Notes under the pieces: model-generated
Told to the model about the DNA's origin: nothing
What the model saw: only the letters and a program-made list of their open reading frames with translations
Databases searched by the model: none
Part shown: positions 37,799 to 41,952 of the stretch, one piece after another
How positions within the stretch are numbered: the first letter of the stretch is position 1
Layout: each line of letters begins with the position of its first letter
Position numbers and translations under genes: made by a program
Source of the DNA: an uncultured Microbacterium sp.
GTDB taxonomy: Bacteria > Actinomycetota > Actinomycetes > Actinomycetales > Microbacteriaceae
Direction: 5' to 3'
Length of the DNA stretch: 64,000 nt
Assembly (NCBI RefSeq): GCF_945952435.1
Contig: NZ_CAMFHZ010000006.1
Location: forward strand, 83,183 to 147,182

Positions 37799-37813
37799 TG
37801 AGAACGGTTGTCA
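37799..37813. promoter_or_regulatory. Zur-type (Fur-family) palindromic box upstream of the COG0523 gene
   Basis: tgagaacggttgtca = TGAgAAC-G-GTTgTCA, within the extended palindrome ttattgagaacggttgtcagtaa. It lies 13 nt upstream of ATG 37827. Confidence 0.7.
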
Positions 37814-37826
37814 GTAAGCTGGCGGG

Positions 37827-38852
37827 ATGATCCTGCCTCGCGTTCCGGTCGTCGCCGTGACGGGGCATCTCGGCGCGGGTAAGACGAGCCTGCTCAACCA
37901 CCTGCTGCGCGCGGAGGGCGCACGGATCGGCGTGGTCGTGAACGACTTCGGCACGCTGAACGTCGACGCGGCCCTGGTCACCGGTCAGATCGACGAGGCC
38001 GCGGCCATCTCCGGAGGTTGCGTGTGGTGCCTCCCCGACGCCGGCGGCTTGGACGAGGCCCTGGAACGCCTCTCCCACCCCCGCCTCCGCCTGGATGCGA
38101 TCGTGGTGGAGGCCAGCGGCGCGGCGGACCCCGTCGTCCTGGCGAGACTGATCCGGTTCAGCGGCGCCGAACGCGTCAGGCCCGGCGGCGTGGTCGAGGT
38201 GATCGACGCGGTCGAGCACTTCACCACCGTCGACACGCGCGAGGCCCCGCCCCTGCGCTATCGCGCCGCGACCCTCGCCGTGATCGGCAAGAGCGACCTG
38301 CTGCCGCCGGACGAGCGCGCACGCACGGTCGAACGGATCCGACACCGCATCCGGGAGAGCAATCCACGGATCCCCGTCCTCCTCGCTCGCCACGGCGGCA
38401 TCGACCCCGCACTGGTCTTCGATGTCGCGGAGCACGCGGATCCCGCCGACCAGCTGCCGATCGCCGCCCTCCTGCGGGAGGAGGCGCACGACCACTCGCC
38501 CGGGCACGCGCACGCGCAGGCGACGTCGATCGCGCTGCGCGGGCCCGTCGCGCCCGGAGCCCTGGTCGATTTGCTCGAAGATCCGCCGCCAGGCGCCTAC
38601 CGGATCAAAGGACGCGTGCGCGTTCGTACTCCGAGGGACGATCGCGGGTACGTGGTCAACGTCGTCGGGCGCATGCTCCACATCGCCGCGTTGCCCGAGC
38701 CGCCGCGCGACGGAGAGCTCGTCGCCATCGGGCCGATGCTCGACCCCGTCGAGGCGCATCGGCGGCTGGCCGCCGTGCTCGACGCTCCGTCCGCGGCCCC
38801 CGATGCCGCCGGGCTCAGGAGACTCCGGCGGCATCGACGCCTCAGCGAGTGA
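37827..38852 (+). CDS. COG0523/CobW-family G3E GTPase (putative zinc metallochaperone)
   Basis: 341 aa. P-loop GHLGAGKTS, EASGAADP, GKSDL. His-rich linker EEAHDHSPGHAHAQ. CobW_C-like domain YRIKGRVRV. The metal motif is GCVWC instead of GCxCC. Confidence 0.85.
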   Translation: MILPRVPVVAVTGHLGAGKTSLLNHLLRAEGARIGVVVNDFGTLNVDAALVTGQIDEAAAISGGCVWCLPDAGGLDEALERLSHPRLRLDAIVVEASGAADPVVLARLIRFSGAERVRPGGVVEVIDAVEHFTTVDTREAPPLRYRAATLAVIGKSDLLPPDERARTVERIRHRIRESNPRIPVLLARHGGIDPALVFDVAEHADPADQLPIAALLREEAHDHSPGHAHAQATSIALRGPVAPGALVDLLEDPPPGAYRIKGRVRVRTPRDDRGYVVNVVGRMLHIAALPEPPRDGELVAIGPMLDPVEAHRRLAAVLDAPSAAPDAAGLRRLRRHRRLSE

Positions 38853-38928: not shown

Positions 38929-39819
38929 TCAGGTGCGGGACGCGCGAGCGATGGACTCGATCGACGCGTCCAGGGTGCGGGTGAACTCGTCGTCGCTCTG
39001 CGACACGGCCAGGCCGTCGAGCAGCGCACGGCTGAAGCTCGCGATCACGCCGGGATTCCGCGCCAGACGTGCGTTCGCCTCGTCCCGGCCGTACCCGCCG
39101 GAGAGCGCGACGACGCGCGCGACCCTCGGATGGTCGACGAGCTCCCCGTAGAAGCCGTCGACGCTCGGCAGGGTGAGCTTGACGGCGACCCTCCCCGCCT
39201 CCGGGAGCGCGTCCAGCTGCGCGAGGAGCTGCGCTTTCAGGAGTTCCTCCGCCCGTTGCTTGTCGGGGATGCGGATGTCGATCTCCGGTTCGAGGATCGG
39301 CACGAGTCCCGCCGCCAGAACGTGCTCGGCGACCTGGATCTGCTGCGCCACCACCCTCGCGATGCCGATCGGGTCGGCGGCATGGACGAGCGACCGCTCC
39401 TTCGTGCCGAACACGCCGCGGTCCGCGGCGTGGGCGAGCAGACCGTCGAGATCGTTGATCTCACGCATCGTCTGCACGCCGTCCCGGGGATCGTCGAGTC
39501 CGTGATCGATCTTCAGGAAGGGCAGGATCCCCTTCACCTTCCACAGGTACGCAGCCACGCCGATCCCGTCGACCGTCCGATCGAGGGTGCCGTCGAACAG
39601 GATCGCCCCCAGGATGCGATCCCCGGTGAAGGCCGAGCTGGTGAGGACGCGGGAGCGGGCGGCGTGGATGCGCTCGAGCATCTCCTCCTCGTCGCGATAC
39701 TGCGACTCGTCGACGCCATAGCGCCGGAGCGCGTCCGGCGTGCTTCCCCCGCTCTGGTCGAGCGCGGCGATGAAGCCCCTCCCCTTCTCGAACCGGGCGA
39801 GCTGGGCGGCGTCGGGCAT
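38929..39819 (-). CDS. Class I (Schiff-base, metal-independent) fructose-bisphosphate aldolase
   Basis: Lies in ORF 38929..39861(-). MPDAAQLARFEKGRGFIAALDQSGGSTP, PFLKIDHGL, FGTKERS, LVPILEPEI, VAVKLTLP and VALSGGY align along the whole length with staphylococcal-type class I Fda. An alternative GTG start is at 39861. Confidence 0.85.
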   Translation of the reverse strand: MPDAAQLARFEKGRGFIAALDQSGGSTPDALRRYGVDESQYRDEEEMLERIHAARSRVLTSSAFTGDRILGAILFDGTLDRTVDGIGVAAYLWKVKGILPFLKIDHGLDDPRDGVQTMREINDLDGLLAHAADRGVFGTKERSLVHAADPIGIARVVAQQIQVAEHVLAAGLVPILEPEIDIRIPDKQRAEELLKAQLLAQLDALPEAGRVAVKLTLPSVDGFYGELVDHPRVARVVALSGGYGRDEANARLARNPGVIASFSRALLDGLAVSQSDDEFTRTLDASIESIARASRT

Positions 39820-39863
39820 CGGCAGGTGCTGGGGGCCTCGGCGGGCCGGTCTGGCAACCACGC

Positions 39864-39986
39864 TCAGCCCTGTCGGCCTTTGAAGCGCGGGTTGAGCTTG
39901 TTGATGACGTAGACCCGCCCTCGGCGGCGCACCACCTGGGCTCCGGGCTGATTCTTGAGGGATTTGAGGGACGCACGGACTTTCAT
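39864..39986 (-). CDS. rpmJ: Ribosomal protein L36, cysteine-free (C-minus, zinc-independent) paralog
   Basis: Not in the ORF track (40 aa). Read by hand: [40 protein letters not shown]. It has no Cys or His zinc ligands, like YkgO-type L36. SD aaggag lies upstream. Confidence 0.85.
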
Positions 39987-39999
39987 GATGACTCCTTAC

Positions 40000-40014
40000 T
40001 GAGAATGATTATCA
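40000..40014. promoter_or_regulatory. Zur-type palindromic box in the divergent L36 / COG0523-like promoter region
   Basis: tgagaatgattatca = TGAgAAT-G-ATTaTCA. It lies 13 nt from the L36 start codon and 48 nt upstream of ATG 40063. Confidence 0.75.
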
Positions 40015-40062
40015 TTCGCTAGCATACGAGGCACCAGACAAAAGATGAAAAGAGGGACGCGC

Positions 40063-41094
40063 ATGGAACCGGTCGGCGTGATCGCGGTGGTGGGCGCAGG
40101 CGACACGGAACGAGGCGGCTACGCGACCGCACTGGCGCACCGGACGAACCGGGCGCTCATCCCCGCGTCGCGGCTGTCAGGATCTCCCGATCCAGCGCAG
40201 GAGGCCGCCGTGCTGGCGTCCTGGACCGACGTCCCGGAGGGCGTCGTGGTCGACATGCCCGACGAGGTGCCCGCGGGCGAGATCATCGGCACCTTCGTCG
40301 ACGTCGAGCAGGGGAGCACCCTCCTCGGCATCGTGTGCGTCGTCGACGCGGCACGAGTGCGCGACGAACTGCGACGGGTGGACGACGTGCCGCTGAGGGA
40401 CAGGGACAGCGGTATCGCCGCCCTGCGGGAGTCGCGCGCACGGCTCACCGCGTGGCAGATCGAGTTCGCCTCGACGATCGCGCTGGTGAACTGGTCGACT
40501 CTGGCCGCCTCGGAGCTGTCGCTCATCGCGTCGCTGCTGAGTCATCTGAGCCCCCGCGCGCGTCTACGCTTGCACGGCGGTATCGTGGAGCGCCTCGTCT
40601 CGGACGACGCCTACGCGGTGGAACAGGACCGCCCAGGATGGATGTGCCTTCTCAACGAGAGCTTCGATCCCCCGCTGACGGATCCCCGGGTGTCCGCCCT
40701 GCGCTACGAACAGGTCCGCCCGCTGCATCCGGGGCGCCTGGCCCACCTCCTGGACGCGCGGATCGAGCCGGGAGAGTTCGGCACCGTGGTGCGCTCCGCC
40801 GGATTCTGCCGTCTCGCGAGCCGCGGCGGCATCGTCGCGCAATGGGAGCACGTCGGGTCCGTGATCTCCCTCAATCCGGTCGCCGTCGACGCGCGACTCG
40901 ACGATGCGGACGAGATGCTCTCCCTCGGACAGGACCTCGCGTTCGTCGGGATCGACCTGGACCGGGACGGTCTCGTCGCCGCGCTGGACGAGGCCGCACT
41001 CACCGATGCCGAACTCGCCGAGGGCCCCGAAGCCTGGGCGAGGTTCGCCGACCCGTTCCCCACCTGGGCGACGGCATCCGATCGGCAGGACTGA
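40063..41094 (+). CDS. Degenerate COG0523/CobW-like protein (predicted pseudo-GTPase) retaining a CobW_C-like domain
   Basis: ORF 40045..41094(+). ATG 40063 is preceded by agaggga. The P-loop position reads VVGAGDTERG (no Lys-Ser/Thr). There is no CxCC. The NKxD position reads VNWS. The C-terminal part (VRSAGFCRLASRGGIVAQWEHVGSVISL ... LAFVGIDLD) resembles CobW_C. Confidence 0.65.
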   Translation: MEPVGVIAVVGAGDTERGGYATALAHRTNRALIPASRLSGSPDPAQEAAVLASWTDVPEGVVVDMPDEVPAGEIIGTFVDVEQGSTLLGIVCVVDAARVRDELRRVDDVPLRDRDSGIAALRESRARLTAWQIEFASTIALVNWSTLAASELSLIASLLSHLSPRARLRLHGGIVERLVSDDAYAVEQDRPGWMCLLNESFDPPLTDPRVSALRYEQVRPLHPGRLAHLLDARIEPGEFGTVVRSAGFCRLASRGGIVAQWEHVGSVISLNPVAVDARLDDADEMLSLGQDLAFVGIDLDRDGLVAALDEAALTDAELAEGPEAWARFADPFPTWATASDRQD

Positions 41095-41201: not shown

Positions 41202-41846
41202 TCAGTGCTCGTCGTAGTGGTCGCCGTGCTGCGCGTGCTTGTGGCCGTCGTGGAGATAGTCCACGTGCCCGTCGTGCTCGACGGTGTCGTGACCGCAGTC
41301 GGCGCCGTGCGCATGGTCGGCGGGCGTGTGCTCCGCCACCGACTCGTGCTCGTCGTAGTGGTCGCCGTGCAGCGCGTGCCGGTGCGTGCCGTGCACGTAG
41401 TCGACATGGTCGCCATGAGGCACTGCCTCGTGGCCGCAGGCCGCCCCGTGCTCGTGCTCCGCGGCGGTGTGCTCGGCGTGGACGTCGGTGTCGGTCATGA
41501 TGACCCTTTCTCTATTGATGGGCGGTGCGGAGGGTGACGCTTGCGGAATCGCGGCCTGAGTTTCCGCAGTTTCCCGGACGTGCGCGAGCGCATCGGCGAT
41601 GACGTGGCTGACATGCAGATCCGCGAGCCGGCAGATGACCTCCTTGCCGCTTCGCTGCGATGTGACCAGCCCCGCCTGGCGCAGGGTCCGCAGATGCTGG
41701 GACACCAGCGGCTGCGACATGCCCGTCGCCTCGACCAGCGCTCCGACCGTCCGCGGCTCCTGCCCGATCGCGTGCAGAAGCTCCAGTCTCGACGCACTGC
41801 CCAGCACTTTGAAGAGTTCGGCAGCGGCGGCGATTCCCCGATTCAT
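41202..41846 (-). CDS. ArsR/SmtB-family metalloregulator with alpha5-type metal site, fused to a C-terminal tandem His/Cys-rich domain
   Basis: Lies in ORF 41202..41918(-). ATG 41846 is preceded by ggagg. HTH LFKVLGSASRLELLHAI ... SQPLVSQHLRTLRQAGLV. ADLHVSHVIADALAHVRE fits DxHx10Hx2E (SmtB D104/H106/H117/E120). No stop occurs before the tail, which has 25 His and 2 Cys in 94 aa. Confidence 0.8.
   Translation of the reverse strand: MNRGIAAAAELFKVLGSASRLELLHAIGQEPRTVGALVEATGMSQPLVSQHLRTLRQAGLVTSQRSGKEVICRLADLHVSHVIADALAHVRETAETQAAIPQASPSAPPINRERVIMTDTDVHAEHTAAEHEHGAACGHEAVPHGDHVDYVHGTHRHALHGDHYDEHESVAEHTPADHAHGADCGHDTVEHDGHVDYLHDGHKHAQHGDHYDEH
41205..41486. repeat. Tandem duplication (2 x 141 bp) encoding the 47-aa His-rich unit
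   Basis: The 25-mer gtgctcgtcgtagtggtcgccgtgc occurs at 41205-41229 and 41346-41370. The protein units both end HVDYxHxxHxHAxHGDHYDEH. Confidence 0.85.
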
Positions 41847-41910
41847 GATCTTTTCCTCCATACGACCATACATATAAATATATTGCAATGTGTCGATAGA
41901 GTTGGGAATC

Positions 41911-41952
41911 GTTCTCACTCGGGGCGCCGACGTCGAAGCCCCGAGTGAGAAC
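41911..41952 (-). terminator. Terminator hairpin downstream of the ABC-F gene
   Basis: Perfect 14-bp stem: gttctcactcgggg (41911-41924) pairs with ccccgagtgagaac (41939-41952). Confidence 0.6.

Follow-up and report, generated by a model that had tools for sequence, protein, structure and literature searches.

A class I fructose-bisphosphate aldolase gene behind a Zur-type box in an uncultured Microbacterium: a probable zinc-sparing isozyme

We analyzed a 64,000-nt stretch of DNA from an uncultured Microbacterium sp. (contig NZ_CAMFHZ010000006.1), referred to below as the window, in which fda, a gene for a class I fructose-bisphosphate aldolase (FBA), follows rpmJ2, a gene for a type B ribosomal protein L36. 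Upstream of the pair lies a palindrome resembling the operators of the zinc-responsive repressor Zur. An initial annotation, made from the sequence alone, had proposed that the two genes share this Zur-boxed promoter and that the aldolase is a zinc-independent isozyme, and we followed up that proposal computationally. The elements concerned are these:

40000 to 40014: Zur-type operator TGAGAATGATTATCA, reading TGATAATCATTCTCA on the minus strand; identified by pattern and by match to a published consensus.
39864 to 39986, minus strand: rpmJ2, type B L36 of 40 aa, the first gene of the apparent operon (NF002021, PF00444).
39820 to 39863, minus strand: the 44-nt spacer between the L36 gene and fda, without a Zur box (sequence reading, fold test).
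38929 to 39819, minus strand: fda, class I fructose-bisphosphate aldolase of 296 aa (NF003784, PDB 2iqt).
40045 to 41094, plus strand: a COG0523-like gene, the divergent partner on the same box (PF07683).

The operator holds a perfect 7-1-7 palindrome (GAATGAT-A-ATCATTC) and sits within the 58-nt divergent intergenic region, 13 nt before the L36 ATG, with an AAGGAG Shine-Dalgarno sequence between the box and that start codon. On its other side, it overlaps the predicted −10 element (TATCAT) of the divergent plus-strand promoter, as placed by a promoter scan for sigma-70-like consensus sites. We scored boxes against a pattern of 12 positions, TGANAAYNRTTNTCA, to which the box at 40000 to 40014 conforms at 12/12. 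An AT-rich consensus, TGAAAATGATTTTCA, had been tried first but under-scored the GC-richer boxes of the Microbacteriaceae and was replaced by TGANAAYNRTTNTCA. The box also agrees at 14 of 15 core positions with the published mycobacterial Zur consensus, YGA[AT]AAY[ACG]RTT[TG]YCR, which was derived from experimentally defined sites in Mycobacterium tuberculosis and Mycobacterium avium paratuberculosis (PMC7174638). With at most one mismatch allowed, TGANAAYNRTTNTCA occurs three times in the window, against 0.04 matches expected, and none of 100 shuffles of the window reached three. All three boxes fall inside 4.1 kb. The Zur-type box that had been noted before the L36 gene is thus borne out by both the pattern and the published core.

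The L36 product scored 80.9 bits, above the cutoff of 70, against the NCBIfam model NF002021, "type B 50S ribosomal protein L36"; its PF00444 score was 70.3 bits. It contains no Cys and no His, so that the Cys3-His zinc ligands are missing, and its earlier description as a Cys-free L36 is correct. The L36 stop codon is the TGA at 39866 to 39864. The long open reading frame of fda (38929 to 39861, minus strand) begins at a GTG, but the conserved start is the ATG at 39819: the alignment to NF003784 begins at residue 18 of the GTG-started frame, an MPD or MTD start stands at the position of this ATG in 15 of 15 aligned homologues, and gene callers picked it on eight metagenome contigs that carry an identical gene (296 aa). 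The spacing from the L36 stop, 44 nt to ATG 39819 and 2 nt to GTG 39861, is exactly that given by the annotation. GTG 39861 is a possible alternative start at which translation of fda would be coupled to that of L36. The homologous spacers measure 36 nt in Microbacterium marinilacus and 31 nt in Microbacterium sp. B2969.

The fda product scored 422.4 bits against NF003784/PRK05377, "fructose bisphosphate aldolase" (cutoff, 392), over positions 4 to 295 of the 297 in the model, and 23.9 bits against PF00274 (cutoff, 22.2), where the match covers the N-terminal half only. Among solved structures, the class I FBA of Porphyromonas gingivalis (PDB 2iqt; E = 2e-89) came closest. An AlphaFold model of the aldolase (pLDDT, 88.8; pTM, 0.88) matched 2iqt in Foldseek with a TM score of 0.93 and matched the rabbit, human, Drosophila, and Plasmodium class I FBAs over their full length with TM scores of 0.71 to 0.79. 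In an hhalign comparison with rabbit aldolase A, which serves as a screen, residues D21, K103, K140, R142, E177, S240, and R264 corresponded to rabbit D33, K107, K146, R148, E187, S271, and R303; they are invariant in 16 actinobacterial sequences. The strand 6 region around rabbit K229 was left unaligned in both pairwise and profile comparisons with the rabbit sequence. K214, in the motif VAVKLTLP, is invariant and lies in a predicted strand (residues 211 to 216) between the strands of E177 and S240, and we propose it as a candidate for the Schiff-base lysine equivalent to rabbit K229. A global pairwise alignment to the rabbit enzyme was rejected, as it put the C-terminal half in the wrong place; global hhalign repaired the placement of S271 and R303 but not that of K229. 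By family, fold, and residues, the fda product is a genuine class I FBA, as had been annotated, with predicted catalytic activity. It contains no Cys, and together with its predicted class I fold and mechanism this makes it a candidate substitute aldolase without a metal site.

The context of fda was then compared across Actinobacteria, using named homologues at 64 to 73% identity and loci from two collection scans. One, a single-protein contig scan of a genome collection, yielded 9 loci, mostly from distant metagenome-assembled genomes (MAGs); the other, a metagenome scan with a family alignment, yielded 80 loci at 55 to 62% identity. Our box count covers 14 loci with homologues at 59 to 73% identity. 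The annotation had left open whether other actinobacterial class I fda genes carry Zur boxes: in 12 of these 14 loci, a box scoring at least 11/12 is present upstream, within 13 to 51 nt of the start of fda or, where another gene leads the apparent operon, of that leading gene. In the remaining two, from Actinopolymorpha and a Propionicimonas MAG, the box stands in the same relative position and scores 10/12. The arrangements in the 12 loci are as follows:

Box, L36 gene, fda: the window, Microbacterium marinilacus, and Microbacterium sp. B2969.
Box, fda, with no L36 gene upstream: Salana multivorans, Mycobacterium sp. 155, Mycobacterium sp. NPDC003323, Plantactinospora sp., Rothia halotolerans, Tessaracoccus caeni, and the metagenome contig L054.
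Boxes between fda and a divergent znuA: M. xanthum, with two boxes between fda and the znuA-ABC-zur operon.
Box, methyltransferase gene, fda: "Candidatus Corynebacterium faecigallinarum," with the box before the methyltransferase gene.

The box of Microbacterium sp. B2969 is identical to that of the window and in the same place. Where no L36 gene stands upstream, the box ends 16 to 51 nt before the fda start codon; in Mycobacterium sp. 155, L36 lies downstream of fda, convergent with it and behind a box of its own, and in T. caeni, fda lies behind an L28-L33-cobW cluster. The same motif precedes the canonical Zur targets znuA, cobW, and L36 in these loci, and in relatives a FUR-family gene stands within 1 to 4 kb. 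Since the box accompanies fda with or without L36, fda itself, and not merely its neighbor, appears to be the conserved target. Control by Zur of the aldolase, independently of L36, is a strongly supported prediction from these comparisons.

Chance matches were rare. Control high-GC loci gave 1 match per 273 kb, and that match was itself upstream of an fda (L054), while base composition predicts that 4e-5 to 1.5e-4 of such upstream regions hold a box scoring 11/12 or better. The metagenome loci served as negative controls and not as extra cases. L054 was the one locus among the 80 with a Zur-type box, and neither L36 nor COG0523 genes were neighbors of fda in any of them.

The boxes occur in two placements relative to the start codon. 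In the first, the box is 12 to 26 nt from the start codon and a TAnnnT hexamer precedes it, 4 to 5 nt upstream in the window, Microbacterium sp. B2969, and Salana and adjacent to the box in Mycobacterium sp. NPDC003323, so that the box would cover the transcription start. In the second placement, it lies 43 to 51 nt from the start codon with the hexamer 0 to 2 nt downstream, which would put the box between the −35 and −10 elements. Both would be classical repressor positions.

Other genes lie near fda or the boxes in these relatives. A conserved protein of 93 to 96 aa with the motif ...VVGLATVSRLLAIELAAATGA... is encoded directly after fda in M. marinilacus, Plantactinospora, and M. xanthum (L018, 6896 to 7177; L022, 6908 to 7198; L107, 5928 to 6218); it is absent from the window and had no NCBIfam family match. 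A Methyltransf_23 S-adenosylmethionine (SAM)-dependent methyltransferase recurs near Zur-type boxes (L103, 4205 to 4933; L104, 1199 to 1921; L105, 7746 to 8594). In Actinopolymorpha, its gene has a box of its own; in "Ca. Corynebacterium faecigallinarum," it immediately precedes fda; and in Tessaracoccus, it ends an L31-L36-CobW_C operon, for which no box was scored. The best NCBIfam match of the protein is a weak one, to a daptide-type methyltransferase (40.7 bits; cutoff, 175), and the window contains no homologue. In Mycobacterium sp. NPDC003323 (L109, 2512 to 4969), the boxed fda starts 31 nt after a DUF1490-P-type ATPase gene pair and is near a znuA-ABC cluster, so that metal exporter and zinc-starvation genes stand side by side.

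On the basis of the gene identities, their spacing, the box, its statistical excess in the window, and its conservation upstream of fda, we consider it probable that rpmJ2-fda is a Zur-repressed two-gene operon and that the aldolase is a zinc-starvation backup for a class II enzyme, presumably encoded elsewhere in the genome. The central claim of the initial annotation, that this class I aldolase is a zinc-independent isozyme under the control of Zur, is supported by the box-L36-fda order in relatives and by the separate box of fda where L36 is not adjacent. In the mechanism that we propose, zinc-loaded Zur would bind the palindrome at 40000 to 40014 and occlude the rpmJ2-fda promoter, and from the same operator, it would cover the −10 element of the divergent COG0523-like gene and block that promoter as well. 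When zinc is scarce, Zur would leave the DNA, and rpmJ2 and fda would be expressed together, presumably from one transcript. The zinc-free L36 would then take the place of the zinc-ribbon L36 in ribosomes, and the metal-free Schiff-base aldolase would take over the cleavage and synthesis of fructose-1,6-bisphosphate from the zinc-dependent class II aldolase. Glycolysis and gluconeogenesis would be kept running while the zinc demand of the cell was lowered.

Several points weigh against this interpretation. The pattern TGANAAYNRTTNTCA was refined on boxes from the same loci, a partial circularity that is mitigated by the published consensus and by the control loci. The three genomes with the L36-fda arrangement are related and so do not provide independent evidence. 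The Shine-Dalgarno sequence of fda in the window is weak, with a GAGG that ends 17 nt before ATG 39819, unlike the GAGGAG found about 9 nt before the fda start in M. marinilacus and Microbacterium sp. B2969; this weak and poorly placed site makes the true start and the translation efficiency less certain. No FUR-family (Zur) gene was found in the 64-kb window. Finally, no class II aldolase gene was found there either, as the annotation had already stated (tblastn best E = 0.96, with an M. tuberculosis Fba query, as a screen only).

It is also conceivable, although improbable, that fda is constitutively expressed from its own promoter within the L36 gene or the spacer and that the box serves only L36 and the divergent gene. 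Our promoter scan was limited to sigma-70-like consensus sites, which leaves this alternative some room. The spacer, however, has no −10-like TAnnnT hexamer. The scan for terminators found no terminator-like site in it, in agreement with the annotation, and the spacer RNA folded no better than shuffled sequence (z = +0.33). Moreover, fda genes without an L36 neighbor have their own Zur-type box, which would be unexpected if the gene were indifferent to zinc.

A slightly smaller chance attaches to the aldolase being under Zur control but having another role, such as activity on a different ketose phosphate, a moonlighting function, or a ribosome-associated function linked to L36. The close pairing with L36 and a COG0523-like protein does recur, the Schiff-base lysine was not matched residue by residue to rabbit K229, and identity to the Staphylococcus aureus enzyme Fda/FdaB is only about 50% (in a screen with a sequence that itself scores 515 bits against NF003784). 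Against such a role, the NF003784 score of the protein exceeds the curated equivalog cutoff, its modeled fold matches class I FBAs over the full length, the equivalents of rabbit D33, K107, K146, R148, E187, S271, and R303 are conserved, and fda is not adjacent to L36 in most genomes.

The usual aldolase of Actinobacteria is, as far as is known, a class II FBA. If this organism were an exception, the fda product could be its sole housekeeping FBA and the adjacency of L36 could be without regulatory meaning, a reading that we judge less likely again. It would fit the failure to find a class II gene in the window; class II FBA (PF01116) was likewise absent from all of the loci retrieved for comparison. 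It would also fit the homologues from Nitriliruptoraceae and Acidimicrobiales MAGs and from about 55 high-GC metagenome loci (55 to 62% identity), in which we found no Zur-type box and which indicate that the family is not always zinc regulated. On the other hand, zinc-replete cells would have the repressor on its site, so that a sole glycolytic and gluconeogenic aldolase placed behind it would normally be silent, and the distribution of fda within genera is patchy. M. tuberculosis relies on an essential Zn2+-dependent class II FBA and has no annotated class I gene (PMC4031216), yet the fda copies of Mycobacterium spp. are boxed.

That the palindrome is instead bound by another Fur-family protein or metalloregulator, so that the aldolase answers to iron, manganese, or nickel, is the least likely of these alternatives: it could draw on the lack of a FUR-family gene among the window genes and on S. 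aureus, where FbaA is manganese dependent and FdaB protects under manganese starvation (PMC9973326), but the motif fits a Zur consensus built on M. tuberculosis and M. avium paratuberculosis sites and precedes znuA, COG0523, alternative L36, and L28-L33 genes in these loci.

Returning to Zur control of a backup aldolase, we think it likely, if with somewhat less confidence than for the window itself, that class I FBA is a conserved and so far unrecognized member of the Zur regulon in several actinobacterial groups. The groups concerned are Microbacterium, Salana, and Rothia; Tessaracoccus and Propionicimonas; Mycobacterium and Corynebacterium; and Plantactinospora.

Known systems offer partial parallels. 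Escherichia coli possesses FbaB, a class I enzyme of the DhnA type, as a second, metal-independent FBA beside the zinc class II enzyme FbaA. FbaB belongs to another family (PF01791, DeoC/LacD-like) and is induced by gluconeogenic carbon sources, and it is not known to belong to the Zur regulon. Diatoms reportedly deploy metal-free class I FBA isozymes when the metal of the class II enzyme is scarce, but unlike the window, that case concerns eukaryotic algae, iron, other regulators, and long eukaryote-type class I enzymes. In S. aureus, the metal-independent FdaB takes over functionally from the metal-dependent FbaA in metal starvation, including that imposed by calprotectin (PMC9973326). FdaB is apparently of the same family as the window aldolase and likewise stands in, metal free, for a class II isozyme when metal is withheld. 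It differs in that the limiting metal is manganese and in that regulation runs through the two-component system ArlRS and an unidentified metal-responsive factor (PMC9973326); it has no reported Zur box and is not linked to genes for alternative ribosomal proteins. The authors of that study speculated that E. coli FbaB could help under zinc limitation (PMC9973326).

Replacement of zinc proteins under Zur control is itself well documented. Haas et al. (2009) described Zur-regulated, zinc-independent paralogues that include Cys-free ("C-minus") L31, L33, L36, and S14, FolE2, DksA2, PyrC2, and HemB2 (PMC2770081). Their survey covered Proteobacteria, Bacilli, and Cyanobacteria, not Actinobacteria, and aldolase was not among its nine enzyme families (PMC2770081). 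As in those systems, a Zur operator in the window would repress a zinc-free substitute, which in those systems is often clustered with COG0523 and znuABC genes; here the substitute lies in an apparent operon together with C-minus L36, itself a classical example. Unlike those paralogues, however, the aldolase is an analogue with another fold and mechanism (Schiff base instead of metal enolate) and is not a paralogue stripped of its metal ligands. The Zur regulon of M. tuberculosis and Mycobacterium smegmatis has the same operator consensus, and alternative ribosomal proteins and COG0523 GTPases are among its targets (PMC7174638). The M. smegmatis genes regulated by Zur or by N,N,N′,N′-tetrakis(2-pyridylmethyl)ethylenediamine (TPEN) include no FBA, and the only aldolase among them, eda, is downregulated (PMC7174638). 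In the open-access literature, our search for Zur or zinc together with aldolase turned up no class I FBA described as Zur regulated, and S. aureus FdaB is the only aldolase case cited in the accessible portion of a 2024 review. The annotation had stated that no established aldolase example was known; this stands for regulation by Zur but not for metal-independent substitution, which S. aureus FdaB demonstrates (PMC9973326).

If the proposal is right, the aldolase step is a point at which bacteria guard their central carbon flux when zinc runs short, and the zinc-dependent class II aldolase would be a physiological zinc choke-point of bacterial central carbon metabolism. The known examples of zinc-protein substitution under Zur control are ribosomal proteins and a small number of biosynthetic enzymes, none of them at a core glycolytic and gluconeogenic step, and the class I/class II FBA pair would join the list of metal-sparing switches. 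In zinc-deficient yeast, the activity of the class II enzyme Fba1 falls substantially, although this is not the primary limit on growth (PMC11001634). The proposal would also link the long-disputed "class I aldolase activity" reported in some mycobacteria to a gene and to a condition that induces it, and a Zur box beside fda would be a simple annotation marker for "second" aldolases. It would bear, too, on the class II FBA inhibitors developed as antimycobacterial and antifungal drugs, because carriers of fda would hold a built-in bypass that is switched on by zinc limitation, including that of host nutritional immunity.

The remaining boxes and genes of the cluster in the window are as follows:

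37799 to 37813: TGAGAACGGTTGTCA, the second Zur-type box, which precedes the COG0523 GTPase gene by 13 nt.
37827 to 38852, plus strand: COG0523 (CobW/YciC-type) GTPase gene, convergent with fda (PF02492, 109.5 bits; PF07683, 44.4 bits).
41903 to 41917: TGGGAATCGTTCTCA, the third Zur-type box (11/12), which precedes the ArsR/His-rich gene by about 57 nt.
41202 to 41846, minus strand: gene for an ArsR/SmtB-family regulator fused to a 98-aa His-rich repeat protein.

Three boxes within 4.1 kb, each before cluster genes, mark this region as a zinc-starvation gene cluster; no ZnuA, L31, L28, or L33 gene was found in the 64-kb window. The divergent COG0523-like protein (40045 to 41094; started at 40063 by metagenome gene callers) retains a CobW_C domain but has a degenerate P-loop (GAGDTERGG), and it gave weak, subthreshold matches to ZigA and to MRF, a GTPase that recruits a ribosome hibernation factor. 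Its gene and that of type B L36 are divergent in the window, M. marinilacus, Microbacterium sp. B2969, and Mycobacterium sp. 155 and lie in the same operon in Tessaracoccus.

In the COG0523 GTPase at 37827 to 38852, the metal-binding motif reads GGCVWC, where CxCC is usual. In the product of the gene at 41202 to 41846, the ArsR/SmtB-type regulator is joined in frame to the His-rich part, which contains two copies of ...HGDHxDYxH(D)GHKHAxHGDHYDEH; an NCBIfam search with the His-rich protein gave no family match. The fused gene was called as 214 aa on metagenome contigs. The ArsR and His-rich proteins are encoded by separate, overlapping genes in M. marinilacus, Microbacterium sp. B2969, and "Ca. 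Corynebacterium faecigallinarum," and the C-terminal 98 aa of the fusion are 82 to 85% identical to the separately encoded proteins of M. marinilacus and "Ca. Corynebacterium faecigallinarum."

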